Of a DNA stretch of 64,000 bases, positions 46,748 through 64,000 are shown one piece after another. Location: NCBI GenBank assembly GCA_963639495.1, contig CAVHWE010000001.1:4704-68703 (forward strand), in the 5' to 3' direction. Source of the stretch: a bacterium (GTDB taxonomy: Bacteria; Bacteroidota; Bacteroidia; Bacteroidales; Bacteroidaceae). Under the pieces are notes generated by a model, which saw only the letters and a list, made by a program, of their open reading frames with translations, was not told where the DNA came from and searched no databases. Positions within the stretch are counted from its first letter, which is position 1, and each line of letters starts with the position of its first letter. The position numbers and the translations under genes were made by a program.

Positions 46748-46775
46748 TATAGTTTATAGTTTATAGTTTATAGTT
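46748..46775. repeat. Heptamer tandem repeat (TATAGTT)x4 upstream of kdsA
   Basis: Four exact units; an inverted copy AAACTATA lies near 46804. Confidence 0.85.
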
Positions 46776-46816
46776 AATAGGAAGTAAACCTGATATTAAC
46801 TGTAAACTATAACCTG

Positions 46817-50382: not shown

Positions 50383-50593
50383 ATACGTAATTGATTAACC
50401 AAAACATACCCCATTGTGTCTGTTTTTTATCTATCTTTGCCAACGAAAAGTAAATGTAAACAACGATAAATCGAGGCAATCCTCATAACCGAGGCTTATA
50501 CCTTATTTATATAAAGGCAATATTCGACCTATGTTACATAGGACCTATATTACACCTAGAAGCAACAATTATTAATTTAAACCTAAAGTAATT

Positions 50594-53500
50594 ATGAGAA
50601 AAACATCTCAGAAATTCTCGCAGAGCCACATGCTCTGCAAAGTTGTTCTGGTAGCCATCATGTTGGTGTTCCAGGCAATGTTAGGAATCGGAGCGGGTGT
50701 CCTCAATGCTCAGACGGTTAAGGGTACTGTCATCTCTGGCAGTGACAATGAACCATTGATTGGTGCAAGTGTCATGGTGCAGGGTACAAAGACGGGTGCC
50801 GTTACTGACCTGGATGGTAACTTTACCATTGAAGCAAAGAATGGACAAACACTCGAAGTTTCGTATCTGGGCTTTATCACCCAAAAGATTAAAGTCACAG
50901 GTTCGACAATCAACGTAACCTTAAACGAAGACAAGCAGTCACTTGATGAAGTTGTCGTAGTAGGTTACGGTGTTCAGAAGAAAAAGCTGGTGACGGGTGC
51001 TACCGTTCAGTTGAAGGGTGACGACATCGCCAAGCTTAACACCACCAATCCTCTTTCTGCCATGCAGGGACAGACACCTGGTGTTAACATCGTTTCTACT
51101 TCTGGTCAGCCAGGTGCTGCCATGAGTGTTACCATTCGTGGTTTGGGTACCGTTGGAAACTCTCAGCCTCTTTACTTGATTGATGGTGTGGGTGGTGATA
51201 TCACCACCTTGAACCCAGCCGACATCGAGAGCATCGACGTATTGAAGGATGCCGCTTCTGCTGCTATCTATGGTGCGCAGGCTGCCAATGGTGTAGTCCT
51301 CGTTACAACCAAGAGCGGTAAGGAAGGTTCTTCCAAGATTACGTACGATGGTTATGTAGGTTGGCAGACGCTGGGACGCCAGATAAGTATGCTCAATGCC
51401 TCTGAGTATATGACAATTATGGATGAGGCTCGCCTCAACTCAGGTATGTCTCCTGTTGATTGGATGTCTTTGAGAGGTATTCGTAATGCAGAAGGTGTTA
51501 TCAATAATACAGACTGGATTGACCAGGCTGTAGATAATGGTGCCTTGACTACCAGCCACAGCTTGGCTTTCACTGGTGGTAGCAAAACTTCTACTTATTC
51601 TATTTCTGGTGGTTATACAGGACAGGACGGTCTCATTGGCGGTTCTGACGTTTCTTATTATAAGAGGTATAACCTTCGTGCCAATTCAGAGCACAAGATG
51701 TTCAATGGTTTGGTTACTGTAGGTGAGCATGTAGGCTTCGTCTATAAGGATAGCCGTGGCATGAACACAGGTAATATCTATAACAATAACCTTCGTGGTG
51801 CTTTCACAACTTCTCCTTTGGTTCCTGTTTATGATGCCAATGGAAACTTTAATTCTACAGAGAGTTCTGACTGGAATGTGAATGATGGTAACCCTTATGG
51901 TACCATGATGATGAACCGTTACAATCAGAGCAAGTCTACTTCTGTTGATGCAAACGTATATGTTCAGATTGAACCTATCAAGAATTTGAAGTTCAAGACA
52001 GTCTTTGCTGTTAATTACGGTGGTTCAGACTATCGTTCTTATTCTCCTGTTTATAAGTTTACTCCACAGAGTGGTAATGGTATCACTAAGGTTAGCCAGA
52101 GTGATGGTAGCGGTATCTCACTGGTTTGGACTAATACCCTGACTTATGATTTCAATATCAAGGAACATCATATCAATGCCTTGATTGGTAGCGAGACTTC
52201 TAAGTATGATGGTAGCTCTTCTGGTAGTACCGGTTATGGCTTGACCGCTGGTTTCAATGATTGGGATCATGCTTATGTCAAGAATACCGATCAGAGTTCA
52301 AGCGACCGTACTATCAGCGGTGCTCCATATAACCCTACTCGTGGACAGTCTTTCTTCGCTCGTTTGGGCTGGTCTTGGAAAGACCGTTATATGGTTAACG
52401 CAACCATGCGTGCCGATGGATCTTCTAAGTTTGCAAGAGGCAACCGTTGGGGTTACTTCCCATCTGTTTCTGCAGGTTGGACACTGACAGAGGAAAAGTT
52501 CATGAAGTCTACAGCTTCTTGGTTGGATTTCTTGAAACTCCGTCTCTCTTGGGGTCAGGTTGGTAATGCCAATGTTAACTGCTTCCAGTATTTAGCTCCT
52601 GTTACAACTTCAAAGACTAACTATAACTTTGGTGCTACTGGTGGTACAGATGCCTGGGTAATGGGTGCATATACCAGCCGCTTGGCAAATGAGAAAGTGA
52701 AGTGGGAGACTTCTGAACAGTACAACCTCGGTATCGATGCCCGTTTCCTCCGTCAGCGTCTTTCTCTGACATTCGATACTTATATCAAGAATACCAAGGA
52801 TTGGTTGGTACAGGCTCCTGTTCTTGCAACAGCCGGTACTCAAGGTCCAGTCATCAATGGTGGTGATGTAAAGAATAAGGGTGTCGAACTTGGTCTTTCC
52901 TGGAATGATCAGATTGGCAAGGACTTTGTTTATAGTGTAGGTGCCAACTTCGCTTACAACCACAATGAAGTAGGTAATATTCCTACATTGGATGGTATCA
53001 TCCATGGTGCTACCAACCAGATTTATCAGAATGCAGAAGAGTTCTATCGTGCAGAGAATGGTCATGCAATCGGTTACTTCTGGGGTTACAAGACAGCAGG
53101 CATCTTCCAGAGCCAGCAGGATATCAATAATTGGATTGCTGCCGGTAATGGTGTGCTCCAGTCAAATGTACAGCCTGGTGATGTAAAGTATGTTGATGTT
53201 AACCATGATGGTGCTATCAATGCTAATGATAAGGTTGATCTGGGTAATGGTCTTCCTAAGTATACTTTCGGCTTCAATTTTACCCTTGGTTATAAGGGCT
53301 TTGATTTGAGTGCAAACTTCACTGGCGCTGCCGGTTTCCAGATTGCACAGTCTTATCGTGATCCTAGTGGTTCACAGGGCAATTACAGTCATCGCATTTT
53401 AGGCAGATGGACAGGTGAGGGTACAACCAATGAGATGCCTCGTGTTACATACGGAGACGTAGGTAACTGGTTGTTCTCAGACCTCTATTTGCAGGATGGT

Positions 53501-53758
53501 GACTACATCCGTTTGCAGAACCTTACCTTGGGTTATGATTTCAAGAAACTTATCTCTTGGAAGGGTCTCTCTAAGTTGCGCCTCTATTTCCAGGTGCAGA
53601 ATCTCTTTACTTTGACCAAGTATGATGGTATGGATCCTGAAATTGGTTCATACAATGGTACAGATGGTAACAGCAGCGACTCTTGGGTATCAGGAGTTGA
53701 TATGGGTTACTATCCACACCCACGTACTTTCATTGTAGGTGTAAATGTTGCATTCTAA
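50594..53758 (+). CDS. susC: SusC/RagA TonB-dependent transporter
   Basis: LDEVVVVGYG, IESIDVLKDAASAAIYG, KWETSEQ, C-terminal YPHPRTFIVGVNVAF. Confidence 0.97.
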   Translation: MRKTSQKFSQSHMLCKVVLVAIMLVFQAMLGIGAGVLNAQTVKGTVISGSDNEPLIGASVMVQGTKTGAVTDLDGNFTIEAKNGQTLEVSYLGFITQKIKVTGSTINVTLNEDKQSLDEVVVVGYGVQKKKLVTGATVQLKGDDIAKLNTTNPLSAMQGQTPGVNIVSTSGQPGAAMSVTIRGLGTVGNSQPLYLIDGVGGDITTLNPADIESIDVLKDAASAAIYGAQAANGVVLVTTKSGKEGSSKITYDGYVGWQTLGRQISMLNASEYMTIMDEARLNSGMSPVDWMSLRGIRNAEGVINNTDWIDQAVDNGALTTSHSLAFTGGSKTSTYSISGGYTGQDGLIGGSDVSYYKRYNLRANSEHKMFNGLVTVGEHVGFVYKDSRGMNTGNIYNNNLRGAFTTSPLVPVYDANGNFNSTESSDWNVNDGNPYGTMMMNRYNQSKSTSVDANVYVQIEPIKNLKFKTVFAVNYGGSDYRSYSPVYKFTPQSGNGITKVSQSDGSGISLVWTNTLTYDFNIKEHHINALIGSETSKYDGSSSGSTGYGLTAGFNDWDHAYVKNTDQSSSDRTISGAPYNPTRGQSFFARLGWSWKDRYMVNATMRADGSSKFARGNRWGYFPSVSAGWTLTEEKFMKSTASWLDFLKLRLSWGQVGNANVNCFQYLAPVTTSKTNYNFGATGGTDAWVMGAYTSRLANEKVKWETSEQYNLGIDARFLRQRLSLTFDTYIKNTKDWLVQAPVLATAGTQGPVINGGDVKNKGVELGLSWNDQIGKDFVYSVGANFAYNHNEVGNIPTLDGIIHGATNQIYQNAEEFYRAENGHAIGYFWGYKTAGIFQSQQDINNWIAAGNGVLQSNVQPGDVKYVDVNHDGAINANDKVDLGNGLPKYTFGFNFTLGYKGFDLSANFTGAAGFQIAQSYRDPSGSQGNYSHRILGRWTGEGTTNEMPRVTYGDVGNWLFSDLYLQDGDYIRLQNLTLGYDFKKLISWKGLSKLRLYFQVQNLFTLTKYDGMDPEIGSYNGTDGNSSDSWVSGVDMGYYPHPRTFIVGVNVAF

Positions 53759-53777
53759 CTCTAAAATTGAAAGTGAT

Positions 53778-55454
53778 ATGAAAAGAAAACATATATTCAT
53801 GAGTGCGTTGATTTTGTCAGCCTTGACACTTACTTCGTGCGATGATTTCTTAGATACAGAGTCCAAGACCGACCTCAACTCTGAAACTGCTTACAGTAAT
53901 GCAGAGACAGCAGAGATTGATCTCGTGGGCTGTTATGATGGATGGCAACGTACCTATACAGATGCGGGTGTCGGCATGTATCTGATGGCTGAGTTTGCTT
54001 CAGATCAGGCTTTTGCAGGTTTGGGTCTCTCTGATGCCAAGAATAACAATGTGATTGACCAGTTTGATATTAGCATTGCTCCTTCGTATAACGACTTGTT
54101 CAATACAGATTGGAAGAACTATTATGCAGCTATCTTTCGCTGTAATCAGTTGATTGCTGCAGAGAGTACCATCAATTGGGGTGGTAATGACAAGGTGAAG
54201 GGTCGCATTCTCGGTGAGGCTCGCGCTATCCGTGCCATCCTGTATTTTGATATGGCTCGCCTGTTCGGTGATGTGCCTTTGCTGTTGACACCATCTGAGG
54301 AAAACATTCCTCGTACACCGGTTAAGGATGTTTACCAGGCTATCTTTGATGACTTCAAGTATGCTATCGCCAATATTCCTGTCGATGCTTATCCGCTCGA
54401 CAATCGTGATAGCAATGATGGTCGTATTACCAAGTATGCTGCCGAGGCTATGATGGCTCGCGCGTACCTCTATTATACAGGTTACTATGGTGAGGAGCAT
54501 CCTGCTTGCTCTAAGTCGGATGCTGTTGTTGCAATCAATGATGTGGTTGTAAATGGTGGATATGAGTTGGAGGCCAACTACAAGAATCTCTGGATGCCTG
54601 CTTGTACTAAGGATGCTTCTTCTAACGGAGAGTATGCATGGAGTACAACTTATGCAGGTAAGTGGTATGATGGTAAGACCTGGAAAGCTGGTCAGGGTAG
54701 TCTCTCTAAAGAGATAGTGCTCAACATGAAGTTCAATTCTACCCACGACTATAATGGAAATGGTGATGGTAACACCTTCTCTGTTTATCTGGGTCCTCGT
54801 AACCGCAGTGCTGCTGATATTTGCATCGCTAGTGGATGGGGAGCTTGCTCAGTTACTCCTTCTTTCGTAGAGCAGTTTAAGAACGATACTCGTTTCTCTG
54901 CCTGTGCATGGAGCTGCAAGGAAGCAGGATTCACTCCTGACTTGAGTGATACCTACGAATACACAGGTTACTATACTCGCAAGTATGCACCTATGTGTTT
55001 TGCAGATGGTACCCGTCAGGAGGTAGGTTTCAAACTCGGTGAACAGCACCAGAATATCACCTACTATCAGGATTATACCATCATGCGTTATGCTGATGTT
55101 CTCTTGATGCAGTCTGAGTTGACAGGTTCTAACTCTGGTTTGAATCAGGTTCGTGCCCGTGCCGGTGAACTCCCAGAGGAGTATAGCATTGACAATATCC
55201 GTAAGGAGCGTGCTATTGAGTTTGCTTTCGAAGGTCTTCGCTATTGGGATCTGATGCGCTACGAAAAGGACGGAGCTTTTGCTGCTAAGACAATTGCTGA
55301 GGCTCAGAATGGTGCTTCTGTCCAGAATGGTGGTGCTGCTGCAAAGACCAAGTTCGTGGAGTCAAACTTTACGACCAAGAAGGGCTTGATGCAGATTCCT
55401 AATACTCAGATTACACTTTCTGGTAATGTCTTGACACAGAACCCAGGATGGTAA
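53778..55454 (+). CDS. susD: SusD/RagB glycan-binding lipoprotein (start at ATG 53778)
   Basis: LTSC-DDFLD lipoprotein signal, GEARAIRA, RYADVLL, ERAIEFAFEGLRYWDL, QNPGW. Confidence 0.95.
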   Translation: MKRKHIFMSALILSALTLTSCDDFLDTESKTDLNSETAYSNAETAEIDLVGCYDGWQRTYTDAGVGMYLMAEFASDQAFAGLGLSDAKNNNVIDQFDISIAPSYNDLFNTDWKNYYAAIFRCNQLIAAESTINWGGNDKVKGRILGEARAIRAILYFDMARLFGDVPLLLTPSEENIPRTPVKDVYQAIFDDFKYAIANIPVDAYPLDNRDSNDGRITKYAAEAMMARAYLYYTGYYGEEHPACSKSDAVVAINDVVVNGGYELEANYKNLWMPACTKDASSNGEYAWSTTYAGKWYDGKTWKAGQGSLSKEIVLNMKFNSTHDYNGNGDGNTFSVYLGPRNRSAADICIASGWGACSVTPSFVEQFKNDTRFSACAWSCKEAGFTPDLSDTYEYTGYYTRKYAPMCFADGTRQEVGFKLGEQHQNITYYQDYTIMRYADVLLMQSELTGSNSGLNQVRARAGELPEEYSIDNIRKERAIEFAFEGLRYWDLMRYEKDGAFAAKTIAEAQNGASVQNGGAAAKTKFVESNFTTKKGLMQIPNTQITLSGNVLTQNPGW

Positions 55455-55493: not shown

Positions 55494-57593
55494 ATGAAAT
55501 TATTCAATCATATATATATGGTACTTGCCATATTTGCTACATTCTTGATGGCGGCTTGTTCGCCAGACGACTTGAGCATGGGCGGCAAGTCTTACTCTCC
55601 TGAGGAATTGGTGGAGGGAAAGGCTTATACCGTGACCATTAATGGCAATGTTGTGACCTTGACATCCAATATTCCTGATTGTACGGCTCTTTGGATTACT
55701 CCTTCAGGTCGTTCTCAGAAACCGGTTCAGAAATTGGAGTTGCCATTTGCTGGTGACTACGAGGTTACTTTTGGTGTTGAGACCAATGGTGGTGTGGTTT
55801 ATGGTGAACCATACAAGTTTAATCTTCCACAGAACGACTTCTCGCTCTTGAACGATAACAAGTGGTTCTACCTGGCTGATCAGAATTATAAGGGCGGTCA
55901 GTTCCCTGATGCTGAGACTTTGGCTGCTGGTGTCAAGAAAAGATGGATTCCTTGCTATGCAAGTTTTGGCATCGGTCAGTGTTCTGGTCCTGTGATGTAT
56001 GCATACCCTTATGACCCTGATGGTGATGGCAAGGGATTTACTGAGGATGATAAGCTCGGCAATGTTTACAAGGATATTCTCTTTGAGAACTTTAAGCCAA
56101 ACTGGGATCCTGGATTCCAGAGCTGGTTGATTCCTGAGACTGACCCTTATATGGATTCATATATGGAGTTCAGTATGGATGCCAAGAATGGTTGTGTGGC
56201 TACGATGTATCGTGGTGAGGCTGGAACTAAGGGAGCTAGTACTGGCTCTAATCTCATTGGTAAGTTCAACATGAACTTGGAAGAGAAGACCATGCCTAAG
56301 ATTTCGTTCTCTGATTGTTATGCCATGCACAACGTAGGCTTTGATGCAGTTTGCTCTAACTATACCCAGGATATCTCTATAGTTGAACTGACTCCTTATA
56401 TGCTTCAGTTGGCTACTCGTCGTACAAACTCAGAGGGTAACTGGTATATCATCTGGAACTTCGTTTCTGAGGAAGTTAAGACTACTAATGGTAAGTGTAT
56501 CCCTGCTGCCGACAAGCTCTTGGATGTTGTTTCTCCTAAACTTCCTGAGTATCCTAACTTGGCAACAGATTTGTTCACTATCGAACATAATGATGTATGT
56601 TATGTTGGTAATAAGGCTACATTCATTCTCGATTCAGAAAAGCCTTACGATATCTTGTGGTGGAACAATTCTCCATTTAAATACGAAACATCGAATACGA
56701 ATGGTGTACCTAGCAAGCAGGAGATGGCTGTTCAGAATGCGGCTCGCTGGAAGTCTGTAATAGGTGATAAGTATAACAATACATGGGCTCCTAAGCCAGC
56801 AGACGCTGTAGTGGATAACTTCCAGCTTTCTATTGAGAAGATTACGGGTCAGGATTTCTACAAGTTCACTTGTACAGACTGCGAAGGCCAGGAACTCGAA
56901 GGTAGAATGGAAATCAAGGATGGCAACAAGCTGGTATTCAACAAGTATATCAATATCATTGCAGCTTCTAGCGATAAGCGTACTATCAAGTTGAGAACTC
57001 GTGAGTTTACAGTCTTGGGCGAGGATGCTGCTGGTCAGTTGATGATTGGTGTTCCTGAAGCAAAGGATGCTGATGGTAATGTCAATACTTATCTCGTAGC
57101 TTGCCTTAACCATAAGGCTATTGGTGGTGGACAGACTGGTCCTACCATCGTGGGTATTGACGCAACTAAGATTCCTGACAAACTTTGGACAGAGAATGGT
57201 TGTCTCCGTTTAGGTTTCTGGCATTACGGAGCTTCTGGTTCTGGTATCTTCAAGGATGAAATTGGCAAAATTAAATTGAAAAAGAATCAGACTATCACAG
57301 TAGTCTTCAAGATTAATAGTGGTATTACATGGTCTACTACTCCAAAATGTGCTTTGATTACTGATAATAAGACTATAGGTGGTACTTGGGAACCAAAGCG
57401 CTTTGAACAGGCTGATGCAGTTGAACTGAATACTAATGGAGAGACAACTGTCTCTTTGAGAAATACGTCAGGTTCAACAGTTACCTTTACTGACACCTGC
57501 CTCGACCTTTCTATACAGTTGGATGGTTATGGCACTTTGGATGGTGATGCCTCAGCTGTAGGTTTGGAGATTGTTTCTTGTACGATTCAATAA
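55494..57593 (+). CDS. Surface lipoprotein, probable glycan-binding protein
   Basis: MAAC-SPDD lipoprotein signal; position after susD; Trp/Tyr-rich. Confidence 0.7.
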   Translation: MKLFNHIYMVLAIFATFLMAACSPDDLSMGGKSYSPEELVEGKAYTVTINGNVVTLTSNIPDCTALWITPSGRSQKPVQKLELPFAGDYEVTFGVETNGGVVYGEPYKFNLPQNDFSLLNDNKWFYLADQNYKGGQFPDAETLAAGVKKRWIPCYASFGIGQCSGPVMYAYPYDPDGDGKGFTEDDKLGNVYKDILFENFKPNWDPGFQSWLIPETDPYMDSYMEFSMDAKNGCVATMYRGEAGTKGASTGSNLIGKFNMNLEEKTMPKISFSDCYAMHNVGFDAVCSNYTQDISIVELTPYMLQLATRRTNSEGNWYIIWNFVSEEVKTTNGKCIPAADKLLDVVSPKLPEYPNLATDLFTIEHNDVCYVGNKATFILDSEKPYDILWWNNSPFKYETSNTNGVPSKQEMAVQNAARWKSVIGDKYNNTWAPKPADAVVDNFQLSIEKITGQDFYKFTCTDCEGQELEGRMEIKDGNKLVFNKYINIIAASSDKRTIKLRTREFTVLGEDAAGQLMIGVPEAKDADGNVNTYLVACLNHKAIGGGQTGPTIVGIDATKIPDKLWTENGCLRLGFWHYGASGSGIFKDEIGKIKLKKNQTITVVFKINSGITWSTTPKCALITDNKTIGGTWEPKRFEQADAVELNTNGETTVSLRNTSGSTVTFTDTCLDLSIQLDGYGTLDGDASAVGLEIVSCTIQ

Positions 57594-60293: not shown

Positions 60294-61859
60294 ATGAAGA
60301 AAGTAAAATTGATATTTGCAACTATGCTTGCCTTATGTTTTTGTTTCGTGATGGCGGCATGTAGTGATGACGATAATGATGTTACTGAAATCTTCCATGT
60401 TGAGGGCACAGAGTTTGCCCTCAGCAACGAAGCTGCTACAGGAACATTCTCGGTGACGGCATCCAGTAAACCGCTCGTTGTGGTCAGAGACAAGGATGAC
60501 GCCGGTAAGAAAGTGGATGTCTCTTGGCTTACCTTGACAGAGGGTAGTACAGAGGGAAATGTATATAACTATTCTTTCGCAGTTTCTACGAACAAGAAAG
60601 ATGATTCTCGCAGCCTTCTCATCAAGGTGACACAGGGTACCAACATGAAGGAGATTTCTATCACTCAGGCAGGTGAACCTCTTGTTGTTCCTGAAGGAGA
60701 GATGGCTCACAATGCCAAGGAACTGGCAAGCATGATGTATGCCGGCATCAACCTCGGCAACTTGTTGGAGGCTCCATCAGGTGAGGGTTCTTGGAGAAAT
60801 GATGGTAAAATTTCTGAGGAGTATATCAAGAGTTTGAAGAATGCTGGTTTCAATACCGTCCGTATTCCTTGCGCTTGGGCAGCTCACTTTACTCATCGTT
60901 CTACAGATCCTGCTTACACCATTGATACCAAATGGCTTCATCGTGTAAAGAAAGTCATCAGCTGGTGTGTTCAGAATGATATGTATGTTATCCTCAATTG
61001 TCATTATGATAAGGATAGTGATACTGATAGCAATGGCGGTTGGCTTGAAGATAATATCTTCAACGATCTGTTGGAACCATCTATCATTGCAAGACAGAAG
61101 GCTATCTGGACTCAAGTGGCTTCTTACATGAAGGACTTTGATGAGCACCTCCTCTTTGCTGCTTGTAATGAGCCAGGTATGAACGAAACTTCTGGTAAAC
61201 CGGAAATGTGGGGTGATAAATATGCTGTGGAGCGTGTGGTTAGATATGAGCAGACCATGATAGATGCTGTTCGAGCTACTGGTGGTAATAATGCTTCTCG
61301 TACTATCATCGTTCAGGGACTCGGTGCTGATATCTCAAATACCTGCAACTATATGGATAACGCAAATGAAACAGATGTGGCAACATTCCCTACCGACAAG
61401 GTGCCAGACCGTCTGATGGTAGAGGTTCACTTCTATGAGCCATATCAGTTCTGTTTGATGGATAAGGATGAGAATTGGGGTAATATGTATTATTACTGGG
61501 GCAAGGATAATAAACTTGCTGGCAGCAACCGTAATACTCCTGACTCTTCTGCTGAGGCATGGGTTGACGCTCAGATGGCTAAGATGAAGGCTAAGTTCGT
61601 AGACAAGGGCATCCCTGTTCTTCTTGGTGAGTATGCCGCTACCTTCCGTACATTAGGAGAAGGTGAAAATCAGGAATTGCACGATAAGTCTGTGGCTTAC
61701 TACGACGAGTATGTTACCAAGGTTGCCAAGGATAATGGTTGTGTGCCTTGCTACTGGGAGACTGGTGACGTGATAGATTGCACCAATGGCGTAGTGAAGA
61801 AACAGTATATCTTTGATGCCATCATGAAGGGTGCAAGCCAGGGTAAATACCCATGGTAA
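60294..61859 (+). CDS. BACON-domain GH5 endoglycanase lipoprotein (likely GH5_4, xyloglucan/mixed-linkage glucan type)
   Basis: AAC-SDDD signal; BACON-like ISITQAG; GINLGN, RIPCAW, LNCH, NEP acid/base, HFYEPY, LGEY nucleophile. Confidence 0.88.
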   Translation: MKKVKLIFATMLALCFCFVMAACSDDDNDVTEIFHVEGTEFALSNEAATGTFSVTASSKPLVVVRDKDDAGKKVDVSWLTLTEGSTEGNVYNYSFAVSTNKKDDSRSLLIKVTQGTNMKEISITQAGEPLVVPEGEMAHNAKELASMMYAGINLGNLLEAPSGEGSWRNDGKISEEYIKSLKNAGFNTVRIPCAWAAHFTHRSTDPAYTIDTKWLHRVKKVISWCVQNDMYVILNCHYDKDSDTDSNGGWLEDNIFNDLLEPSIIARQKAIWTQVASYMKDFDEHLLFAACNEPGMNETSGKPEMWGDKYAVERVVRYEQTMIDAVRATGGNNASRTIIVQGLGADISNTCNYMDNANETDVATFPTDKVPDRLMVEVHFYEPYQFCLMDKDENWGNMYYYWGKDNKLAGSNRNTPDSSAEAWVDAQMAKMKAKFVDKGIPVLLGEYAATFRTLGEGENQELHDKSVAYYDEYVTKVAKDNGCVPCYWETGDVIDCTNGVVKKQYIFDAIMKGASQGKYPW

Positions 61860-61876
61860 TAAGAAATAAGATATTA

Positions 61877-61948
61877 AGTCTTTAGGTTTAATATAAAGTG
61901 TGTGGACGCATATCGGGGGAATCTTTCTCTGATGTGCGTCCTTTTTTT
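61877..61948 (+). ncRNA. PUL 3'-UTR element and terminator, candidate sRNA copy 1
   Basis: Near-identical to 63936-64000; CTTTAGGTTTAA (61880-61891) is the reverse complement of 50577-50588; GGACGCATATCGG...CTGATGTGCGTCC hairpin plus T7. Confidence 0.55.
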
Positions 61949-61975
61949 GTGCAAATATCGTACATCCTAACATAA

Positions 61976-62107
61976 TATACCTATCCTTTTATCAAAAGTG
62001 AAACTGCTAATCTGCCCGTAAAAGCTTATAATCTTCAAGGGCAGTTGGTTACTCCAAATACAAAAGGAATTGTGATAATTAATGGTAAAAAATATTTCAA
62101 TCGTTAA
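61976..62107 (+). pseudogene. Orphan T9SS (Por) C-terminal sorting-domain fragment
   Basis: ...PVKAYNLQGQLVTPNTKGIVIINGKKYFNR*; in-frame stop at 61973-61975 and no start codon. Confidence 0.7.
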
Positions 62108-62142
62108 TTGTAAAGATTCGTATAGCAGTGTAAATAAATAGA

Positions 62143-62182
62143 AAAGGCGCACATGTTCGTAGATCACGAGATGTGCGCCTTT
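62143..62182. terminator. Bidirectional terminator
   Basis: AAAGGCGCACAT...ATGTGCGCCTTT. Confidence 0.8.
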
Positions 62183-62187
62183 CGCTT

Positions 62188-63768
62188 TTAGTTATTTATT
62201 AAATGATAAGTTCTGTTTCTGAACGTGCCTGTTGTTTGAATTCTATTCTCGGCAACCAATTCTGAAAGATACTTTTTTGTCAATGTAATCTTTATACCTA
62301 TAGCGTTGCTAATTTCTGACGAACTCAGTTGTTTTTCTCTTGTTAGCAGTTTGAGAATTTGACTCTTCCTATTTTCTTTTGATACCTTTTTTACCGCCAT
62401 ATTCTCCGGATTTACCGCCATATTCTCTGGATTTACCGCCACATTCTCCGGATTTACCGCCACATTCTCGTCTTTTACCGATGGTGAAACCTCATTTACC
62501 GCCACAAGTGGCTTCTTGATATGATTCTCACTTACAAATCCTTCTCTCATCTTCGGAACAAACATTTCTGTGCGATCTGGATTGTGCATGTCTATAAGTG
62601 TTGGCTTGAGGTCGAAGGCATTTTCCCAAGCGTAATATATGCTAGGTATTCCTGTGCCAGCTCGTTCGCCTAAATCTACTAGAGAAAACATACTGAAGAT
62701 GGTCGAGTTTCTTGGGTCTGATATGCCGCCACTCAATGCCTCTTTTTGAGAAATACGTAAACATCCAGGGTTGGCAAACTTGTAACCTTCTAGTGACTTG
62801 ATGATGACCAATCCCCTAGGACCATAATAGTCTGCATTGACAAGGGTGTTGAGTAATGCTTCTCGTATGGCCTCTGCTACGGGAGTCTCATCAACTCTTG
62901 TGATTCCATCAAGTTTAAATGGTCTCGGCAAATCAACAGTCAACTTATTAACAATGAGAAAGTAAAAGTCGAAGAGGTTACCACTCCATTCGCCAGAGTT
63001 GGAGACAATTCTATCAACCCATCGCAATCTGATGTCCTTCACTTCACGATAATCCAGAAAGTATTGGTTGTATTCCCTTGTAATCTCATATTCGTAGCCA
63101 AACATCAACAAACCAGCTGCTGTGGGATGGAGCTGGTTCTCTTTATCAAAAGCAACTGCTCCGATTTTGCGAAGAAAAACGAAATCTTCATCTTCTTGCC
63201 ATGCGTGTCGAGGATGAACCACGTTGAATCTGTTGCGATAGCTATGTACGGTGTCGAGGCAGATAGCATCGAGTGCTATATCTGATAATACTTTCTTGTC
63301 TTGTGTGATTTGATATGCATCTCTAAACATGGCCGACATATCGTAAGGCGAGCAGTGATAGTCGCCTTCATGGTTTCTTCGGAAAGTTCCCTTGCGAGGG
63401 TCTGTACCGATATATACAGGTCGGATGGATCGTTCTGCTCTTGGTACATGGATGATAATGACATCTTTGCCATCGATGTTTTCTACTGTGACATCTTTTT
63501 CTGTGAGTATGTTGATGCTGACCTTCTGTCGGTTGTTGATAATGTTCCAAAAGTCTTTAATCAACTTGTCTGCATCATTTACACCTGTGACGGTCAAGTT
63601 ACCTCTTTTGTCTTCATCTACGCCGAGGAGTATGGCGCCTCCATCGGTGTTCGCGAAAGAAGAGTATGTCTCCCATAGCGAACTTGGCAACCCATTGGAT
63701 GCCCTTTTGGCTTCCAATCTGTTGTCTTCTCGGTACTCTACAACTTTGGTGATGTCAATCGTTCTCAT
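62188..63768 (-). CDS. AlbA_2 (Schlafen-like) + HATPase_c_4 + wHTH protein
   Basis: EDNRLEAK, YSSFANTDGG, AIREALLN, NPG, PRN, GERAGTGI, C-terminal HTH; canonical promoter TTTG(63833-63836)-N20-TAACTTTG(63805-63812). Confidence 0.85.
   Translation of the reverse strand: MRTIDITKVVEYREDNRLEAKRASNGLPSSLWETYSSFANTDGGAILLGVDEDKRGNLTVTGVNDADKLIKDFWNIINNRQKVSINILTEKDVTVENIDGKDVIIIHVPRAERSIRPVYIGTDPRKGTFRRNHEGDYHCSPYDMSAMFRDAYQITQDKKVLSDIALDAICLDTVHSYRNRFNVVHPRHAWQEDEDFVFLRKIGAVAFDKENQLHPTAAGLLMFGYEYEITREYNQYFLDYREVKDIRLRWVDRIVSNSGEWSGNLFDFYFLIVNKLTVDLPRPFKLDGITRVDETPVAEAIREALLNTLVNADYYGPRGLVIIKSLEGYKFANPGCLRISQKEALSGGISDPRNSTIFSMFSLVDLGERAGTGIPSIYYAWENAFDLKPTLIDMHNPDRTEMFVPKMREGFVSENHIKKPLVAVNEVSPSVKDENVAVNPENVAVNPENMAVNPENMAVKKVSKENRKSQILKLLTREKQLSSSEISNAIGIKITLTKKYLSELVAENRIQTTGTFRNRTYHLINN
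62390..62469. repeat. 21-bp coding tandem repeat (ENxAVNP, about four units)
   Basis: TTTACCGCCAYATTCTCYGGA units; protein ENVAVNPENVAVNPENMAVNPENMAV. Confidence 0.9.
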
Positions 63769-63935
63769 GTTTTGCCTTTTTATGATTGTATTTTGTTAAT
63801 TTGGCAAAGTTACATCTTTTTTCCGTGACGTGCAAATATTTCATTGCTTTTTTCTCTTTTTACCGAATAATATAGATAATCTGCAAAAAAGTAAAAGGCT
63901 TTGTGGGCTTTTTTGCGAACTTTGCCAGAAAAATT

Positions 63936-64000
63936 AGTCTTTAGGTTTGATATAAAGTAGGTGTGGACGCATATCGGGGAATCTTTCTCTGATGTGCGTC
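63936..64000 (+). ncRNA. Candidate stand-alone sRNA copy 2 (3' end runs off the window)
   Basis: Repeat of 61877-61940 with one substitution and two small indels; an imperfect -7 element GAACTTTG (63917-63924) lies just upstream. Confidence 0.5.

Follow-up and report, generated by a model that had tools for sequence, protein, structure and literature searches.

The 64,000-nucleotide stretch of DNA analysed here (assembly GCA_963639495.1, Bacteroidaceae; contig CAVHWE010000001.1, positions 4,704-68,703 of the forward strand), hereafter the window, holds a polysaccharide utilization locus (PUL) that ends in an AU-rich trailer and a predicted terminator. This terminal element occurs twice in the window and is complementary, over 12 nt, to the region in which translation of susC, the PUL's own first gene, is initiated. 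It had originally been predicted to specify a pair of small RNAs (sRNAs) acting on susC, and that prediction is the subject of this account. The operon reads susC, susD, two uncharacterised proteins and a GH5 gene:

50594-53758, plus strand: susC, encoding a SusC/RagA TonB-dependent transporter, the first gene of the PUL (TIGR04056, 940 bits)
53745-55454, plus strand: susD homologue (PF07980, PF14322)
55494-57593, plus strand: 699-aa protein without a Pfam match, from its position probably a surface glycan-binding protein (architecture as in the available part of PMC11784079)
57612-60263, plus strand: 883-aa protein with a weak lipocalin-like match, likewise from its position probably a surface glycan-binding protein
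60294-61859, plus strand: GH5 with a BACON domain (PF00150, PF13004), here called GH5a, the last gene before the terminator

Xyloglucanases are among the closest solved relatives of GH5a, and the nearest relatives of the SusD protein, at 98-99% identity, are from Segatella copri. The available part of PMC11784079 describes the S. copri core xyloglucan PUL as a transporter, three binding proteins and two GH5_4 enzymes, the second of them weakly induced. The locus matches this description, and its assignment as an S. copri-type xyloglucan PUL is made by architecture alone.

The element, its supposed target and what lies between its two copies are laid out as follows:

50577-50588, plus strand: target site, 12 nt in the susC initiation region (-17 to -6), containing AACCUAA
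61808-61815, plus strand: perfect -7-type box within the end of GH5a
61877-62000, plus strand: copy 1 of a direct repeat of about 124 bp, comprising the native 3' trailer, the terminator and 60 bp beyond
61880-61891, plus strand: candidate seed with the word UUAGGUU, within a weak hairpin
61904-61948, plus strand: predicted intrinsic terminator, a 17-bp stem and U-tract (from folding and allele comparison)
62001-63935: strain-variable insert of 1,935 bp, 40% G+C against 44%, absent from the orthologous site of most relatives
62188-63768, minus strand: 526-aa SLFN_AlbA_2/HATPase_c_4/weak HTH protein (from domain matches), the cargo of the insert
63917-63924, plus strand: imperfect -7-like box, which came with the insert and is private to this genome
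63936-64000, plus strand: copy 2, a displaced allele of the same trailer, running on to 64060

The complementarity on which the prediction was built is confirmed, 61880-61891 and 50577-50588 (-17 to -6 from the susC ATG at 50594) being exact reverse complements. So is the single A-to-G change in copy 2 (63939-63950), which keeps a G-U pair and leaves the duplex energy at -12.3 kcal/mol; the same change also preserves the hairpin around the seed (U-A becoming U-G). The repeat had been put at about 65 nt; it extends over about 124 bp (61877-62000 and 63936-64060), 60 bp past the terminator and beyond the edge of the window. A strong hairpin with a U-tract does end both copies (17 pairs at 61904-61941; fold z-scores of -5.4 and -5.3), whereas the copy-1 seed, thought to be single-stranded, falls in a weak hairpin of 10 bp (-3.4 kcal/mol, arms 61871-61880 and 61885-61894) that 34 of 200 shuffles equal. 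Across 14 alleles the terminator stem is paired in 154 of 154 cells, with one-sided changes only and no two-sided covariation; pairing to this extent is not above the shuffle control (290/500).

Relatives carry the element once. A covariance-model search with a 14-allele model finds one strong match in each of four other genomes and two here. Fifteen of 400 genomes of the genus match strongly, the source genome included, and the other 14 have one match each (two candidates were scored per genome). One relative, G036, shows the empty site with a single trailer copy. A metagenome scan yields 84 matches on 77 distinct contigs, two duplicate loci having been removed: 61 contigs read directly from GH5a through the trailer to a second GH5 (GH5b), five contain the cassette, and the remaining 11 are truncated or have another downstream side. 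(These 11 first or single copies were not scored as empty; copy 2 of L154 is a twelfth such case.) The G allele, together with the 2-nt insertion of copy 2, is found in 34 of the 61 single-copy contigs and is thus the commoner allele. What had been read as a G-U-preserving change between paralogues is a polymorphism of the population.

The junctions suggest how the second copy arose. The right junction can be seen in three cassette contigs, and in all three about 70 bp from the end of the other GH5a allele's coding sequence stand ahead of copy 2; because of this remnant, copy 2 is best understood as the resident trailer, displaced by incoming DNA. In the source genome 64 bp, the imperfect -7 box among them, stand in the remnant's place. 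That box is indeed there ahead of copy 2, with G for T at its first position, but copy 2 is not isolated, as had been supposed: past the window's edge comes a perfect -7 box, and then a second GH5-like gene. The promoter-like junction recurs in none of the 84 metagenome matches and differs in the three other cassette contigs; G at the first -7 position is rare (9 of 375 boxes). Accidental transcription of copy 2 in this strain is possible, because the 15-mer of its -7-like box also lies upstream of a gene on contig C2. The free-standing second sRNA thus gives way to a trailer allele displaced by cassette insertion, the scenario that the original prediction had itself named as fatal to it.

The AlbA_2 protein has its next relatives within the genus, at 45-55% identity, and matches no PADLOC family. 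The insert carries no transposase or integrase and has no plasmid match, and the repeat element has no match in viral contigs. A hairpin behind the AlbA_2 gene (62142-62183), probably its terminator, has a stem resembling that of the repeat's terminator. The trailer is kept while the GH5a upstream of it swaps between interchangeable alleles that are 37% identical (window 60294-61859 compared with L008:16555-18105), the rest of the PUL being conserved; the SusD protein, too, has strongly diverged interchangeable alleles, at about 80% identity. The -7 box inside GH5a (61808-61815) is not conserved: 5 of 33 loci with the window's GH5a allele have it, as do none of 41 with the other (5/74 in total). 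Directly behind the terminator U-tract, L166 and L191 carry group II introns, and L195 the beginning of a similar sequence. Some group II introns target terminators. Taken with the AlbA cassette, these introns make the site behind the terminator look like an insertion hot spot.

Membership in the FopS family of sRNAs had also been suggested, and it does not hold: the element stays below the threshold of Rfam RF04319, has no segment that pairs with the start codon, is single-copy, and has no conserved promoter. Neither copy matches RF04319 at E<=5 or E<=10, nor is the element among the nine own-genome matches (150 of 185 candidates scored); with a gathering threshold of 56 bits, positive controls reach 65 bits (C336) and 70-79 bits (related loci). 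Local similarity of the element to the local FopS is not above shuffles (630/1,000), and when the source genome is searched for the 25-nt FopS core with as many as 5 mismatches allowed, C31 and C336 are the only matches; copy 1 pairs only with -17 to -6.

True FopS loci, with a -7 box and a terminator, do lie elsewhere in the source genome, at C336:1-66 (minus strand, 65 bits) and at C31:1-37 (minus strand, cut by the contig end). Four relatives (L332, L333, L334 and L338 among the loci) have three FopS matches each over the cut-off, at 65-79 bits overall, and a 20-nt FopS core is present in 140 of 151 genomes of the genus, with 0 control matches. The FopS loci are predicted to pair with the window's susC start across the AUG, at -14.8 kcal/mol compared with -13.7 for copy 1, and this pairing could explain why the target site is conserved more deeply than the trailer. 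According to the available part of PMC11697453, FopS RNAs pair across the start codon, and their 5' part, which carries a word related to that of the element, is bound by RbpB. RRM_1 proteins were found in none of five genomes, a Bacteroides thetaiotaomicron control being positive, and in these genomes FopS apparently does without RbpB. Sequences resembling FopS but below the Rfam cut-off (39.8 bits) also alternate with tRNA genes, each of two tRNA copies being followed by one (L336:1257-1472).

How unusual, then, is the 12-nt match? (A technical note: genome-wide counts come from a simple open reading frame (ORF) caller, taking at least 150 aa and the first ATG, on an assembly that is 76% complete and in 360 contigs; the comparison sets are 1,622 initiation regions and 227 terminated operons.) The exact complement of the 12-mer occurs in one of the 1,622 initiation regions, and the match of this trailer to the head of its own operon has p of about 0.04. 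Genome-wide there is no excess of such own-head matches (one observed at p<=0.01, 2.3 expected among the 227 operons), and 47 of 227 trailers match some initiation region by at least 12 nt. The energetics are modest: opening the seed costs 3.8 kcal/mol and opening the target 1.7 (5.5 together), and the AUG is not covered; the copy-2 seed opens more easily, at 1.4 kcal/mol. Copy 1's best predicted partner is another susC (C3:12481).

Among 37 orthologous loci, AACCUAA stands at the susC start in 19, nine with the homologous seed-bearing trailer, which constitute one lineage and not independent cases, and ten without a trailer match; three of these ten have the identical 12-nt target site. (Seven close loci lacking a susC start and the distant loci L047-L070, 24 in number, are not in the set of 37, and for four loci another start codon was chosen.) No covariation of seed and target is seen among these loci, and in 17 close alleles the seed is no more invariant than the non-transcribed DNA that follows the terminator. 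Contigs assembled from four RNA-library runs cover the region patchily, with no pile-ups of starts or ends, though assembled contigs cannot show a short RNA or processing.

The word in the seed belongs to a larger class. The genome has 84 intergenic TTAGGTT sites, 16 of them just ahead of a hairpin with a U-tract. On the side of the targets, AACCUA is found at the starts of 15 of 23 carbohydrate genes and of 13 of 79 random operon heads (p = 1.5e-5, genes classified by hand). Among homologues not used as seeds the figures are 4/65 and 10/1,531 (p = 0.002), and for the 7-letter word alone, in the same non-circular set, 1/65 and 2/1,531 (p = 0.12). The top enriched word of that set is TCTAA, the complement of part of FopS. 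In starts AAACCTA is strand-biased, 14 to 1. (An enrichment of trailers among carbohydrate genes, 5/43, was discarded as circular, those genes being the seeds.) The trailer does carry a word complementary to one enriched at carbohydrate starts, which supports part of the original interpretation; any action through it would not be specific to the PUL's own susC, which ranks 11-17 among the 1,622 by the segment used.

For four of nine word-bearing trailers the top predicted partner is a susC-like start. The 3' trailer of an alpha-amylase gene (C110:357-290, minus strand; L242) has the window's susC as its best partner (-20.6 kcal/mol, rank 1 of 1,622) and outpairs the PUL's own trailer there, at -19 to -21 kcal/mol with pairing as far as the AUG; eight related genomes have an identical copy of its pre-terminator part. 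This trailer and that of SusE/F retain the word in close relatives only, and among the remaining motif-bearing trailers none matches the operon it ends (ranks 340-1,402 of 1,622). The words also occur in tandem (UUAGGUU, UUAGUU and UUAGAUU) in free-standing units of about 170-450 nt from -7 box to terminator, each with a perfect -7 box, tandem words and a terminator (coordinates approximate):

C5:6586-6760, plus strand: free-standing array unit
C41:8354-8177, minus strand: free-standing array unit
C76:900-675, minus strand: free-standing array unit
C81:5788-5340, minus strand: free-standing array unit
C140:1908-1738, minus strand: free-standing array unit

Three of the five units lie at GH5, GH115 or HTCS loci. 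Such promoter-array-terminator units are present in five of five related genomes (7-10 matches against 0-1 in the control). In most of 150 other genomes of the order the exact tandem pattern does not exceed its control, and arrays are claimed for the S. copri complex only. They are candidate multi-seed sRNAs or sponges with no Rfam match over the cut-off; identification of the C41 array as BTnc231 was rejected (22.6 bits, cut-off 80.4). A different arrangement, in L237 (960-1260 and 1480-1635), has two tiny ORFs, hydrophobic and of about 30 and 26 aa, that follow a -7 box, then hairpins, a UUAGGUU array and a terminator; it recurs in four of four loci viewed and was not found in the source assembly. 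The L237-L241 unit, with its structured 5' part, array and terminator, was considered as SrcF and dropped, having no -7 box at 272 nt and following small ORFs.

On balance, and with some reserve, we favor an ordinary explanation: a native trailer and terminator doubled by an insertion, with the 12-nt match a by-product of shared words and with no dedicated feedback sRNA pair. The element would be the 3' end, AU-rich trailer and intrinsic terminator, of the PUL core transcript, separating it from the separately promoted second GH5; the terminator would stop transcription. Comparison of genomes and alleles establishes its single-copy state in the species complex, the allelic origin of the two copies, the insertion, the exclusion from FopS and the recurrence of the motif. 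In a minority of strains, recombination probably brought in a GH5a allele with its trailer and the AlbA_2 gene and pushed the resident trailer downstream; with incoming and displaced trailers side by side, the two copies thus represent a single locus in two allelic forms. The 12-nt match would arise because the trailer contains the lineage-recurrent UUAGGUU and carbohydrate starts are enriched in its complement, an enrichment of AACCUAA plausibly shaped by the true FopS genes elsewhere in the genome, which we infer to be the force conserving the target site.

Several observations weigh against this explanation. The PUL is the only one of 227 terminated operons whose trailer matches its own first gene by at least 10 nt, and 0.043 would be expected at 12 nt or more. 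In L085, the one allele that has diverged, 11 of the 12 bases of the seed are retained (the change being to G-U) compared with 13/19 and 6/12 in the flanks, and the susC target site there is intact. Seven of 12 terminator-proximal UUAGGUU sites are at carbohydrate loci, which plain termination leaves unexplained (the 12 are the 16 mentioned above minus copy 2 and three on the strand opposite the adjacent gene). Finally, the copy-1 segment prefers carbohydrate-gene starts at 7 letters (0/200 and 4/100 shuffles equal it). This preference is lost at 8 letters (13/100 and 21/200 shuffles), and FopS likewise passes at 7 and fails at 8. Copy 2 shows no preference (36/200 shuffles); among ten other units one passes the shuffle test at 7 letters and three at 8.

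What else might the match mean? The most serious rival, possible though doubtful, is that processing or decay frees the native trailer as a 3' fragment whose UUAGGUU seed blocks AACCUAA-type starts of several carbohydrate mRNAs, its own susC included; the trailer would then belong, with other word-bearing trailers and the promoter-driven arrays, to a loose class that is FopS-like but outside the FopS family. The marking of carbohydrate starts by AACCUA, the susC-like partners of four of nine trailers (and of the amylase trailer above all), the array units in all five related genomes and the own-head match all favor it, and so does the lack of RRM_1 proteins, which leaves no obvious reader for a protein-binding role. 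The sharp drop of the xyloglucan transporter transcript after induction fits feedback as well, though its authors, in the available part of their text, ascribe it to catabolite repression. Set against these are a weak net pairing that leaves the AUG uncovered, the want of a conserved internal promoter and of seed-target covariation, a target preference that fails at 8-mers, for the 7-letter word alone and for most arrays, and the retention of the word by the amylase and SusE/F trailers in close relatives only. The full model of the original prediction, in which a feedback sRNA derived from the 3' end and a paralogue under selection, transcribed independently, both repress susC, is far less credible. 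Its -7-like box would yield an RNA of about 80 nt, has a counterpart upstream of the C2 gene and precedes the more accessible of the two seeds. The junction is private, however, boxes with G first are rare, and copy 2 lacks any preference for carbohydrate starts; accidental transcription would not amount to a conserved system, and the single-copy relatives have already largely refuted the pair.

That UUAGGUU sets transcript stability, as a signal for protein binding or RNase processing, its complementarity to starts being incidental, we judge improbable. At 12 sites a hairpin lies no more than 25 nt from the word, which is also tandemly repeated, by analogy with protein-sponge RNAs. RbpB binds the FopS segment that carries the related word, as described above. 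This reading leaves the enrichment of the complement at carbohydrate starts unexplained, and it has to contend with the lack of RRM_1 matches and with an S. copri preprint (bioRxiv 10.1101/2024.04.05.588293) that, in its available part, reports no homologues of known RNA-binding proteins. The match might also act in cis, as 5'-3' pairing inside the 11-kb mRNA or as a DNA inverted repeat that inverts the PUL coding block: the two 12-mers do form a perfect inverted repeat bracketing five genes. This is very unlikely, given that no inverted junction occurs in 14 genomes aligned across the trailer (the metagenome pattern being blind to inverted junctions), that other motif-bearing trailers do not match their own operons, and that no recombinase is present among 13 proteins scanned around the PUL.

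If the ordinary explanation holds, the locus is simply a terminator doubled by insertion, and the headline sRNA pair is ordinary too; the residual trailer candidate would be a variant of FopS-type regulation, and new if true. One can generalize from that candidate, at the price of a rather unlikely proposition: that S. copri has a lineage-specific layer of translational cross-silencing without RRM chaperones, in which UUAGGUU trailers and multi-seed RNAs pair with the AACCUAA starts of susC, glycosidase and sugar-transporter mRNAs. Its members would be the 3' ends of the xyloglucan PUL, the amylase, SusE/F, a second susCD and a GH2 operon. Expression of one PUL would then restrain that PUL and its competitors, in parallel with the true FopS genes, and the xyloglucan trailer, as a self-limiting member, could contribute to the post-induction drop of its transcript. 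S. copri is, by the available literature, a dominant fibre degrader without Shine-Dalgarno signals or known RNA chaperones, and no direct targets or mechanisms have been established for its sRNAs. With a seed word, a target word and a few candidate RNAs defined, post-transcriptional ranking of polysaccharides would become directly testable; a second testable handle is the occurrence of true FopS across the genus, where at least some genomes have no RRM proteins.

Some observations on the surroundings stand apart. Upstream of susC in G036, an IS982-family transposase has inserted about 100 nt from the start codon (L004:1184-2083). The third gene of the GH5 region, beyond the window, has a group II intron of about 700 nt in its leader (C1:70260-70960, L341; about 65560-66255 in window numbering); the intron is too short for a reverse-transcriptase gene, and G036 has none at that place. 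Heptameric TAGTTTA/TAGTTAA tandem repeats at 46750-46776 and at about 25 other intergenic sites genome-wide, often inverted arms that adjoin stop or start codons, are a separate repeat class.

Among the papers listed by literature searches, none describes the element, the UUAGGUU class or FopS in Segatella, and the available portions of the FopS texts do not mention Prevotella. FopS (RF04319) is among the closest likenesses: as described in the available part of PMC11697453, its RNAs, like the element, are about 70-80 nt long with an AU-rich 5' part followed by an intrinsic terminator, are complementary to susC initiation regions and contain a loosely similar U-rich AGGUU word. Unlike the element, they have, in that paper's predicted duplexes, a segment that pairs across the AUG, and they are multicopy paralogues, mostly with their own canonical -7 promoter, whereas the element is single-copy with a private or unconserved box; it is also confined to the S. 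copri complex (15/400 genomes), in contrast to the distribution of the FopS core (140/151). DonS-type cis-antisense RNAs (PMC7366714 and PMC13750123, available parts) would likewise repress the susC of a PUL. They lie on the opposite strand at the susC 5' end; the element is on the sense strand, 11 kb away, with 12 nt of complementarity. SrcF comes from the same species complex and affects PUL expression, its direct targets being unknown; by its description in the available part of bioRxiv 10.1101/2024.04.05.588293, it is 272 nt long and intergenic, which sets the element apart. That preprint catalogues 63 noncoding RNAs, 30 of them derived from untranslated regions (UTRs), and the trailer or the arrays may already stand among them.

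In enterobacteria, 3'-UTR-derived feedback sRNAs exist; the element resembles such RNAs in its place at an operon end, its shared terminator and its complementarity to a functionally related mRNA (FopS-14 being the example in the available part of PMC11697453), and differs in having no conserved internal promoter and in being known here from sequence alone. The locus is also like a duplicated intrinsic terminator, with its 17-bp stem and U-tract after the last gene, a direct repeat around strain-variable cargo and empty sites in relatives. A transposon leaves a short target duplication; here the repeat is about 124 bp long, its copies are different alleles of the population and the insert has neither transposase nor integrase, which points to a recombination scar.

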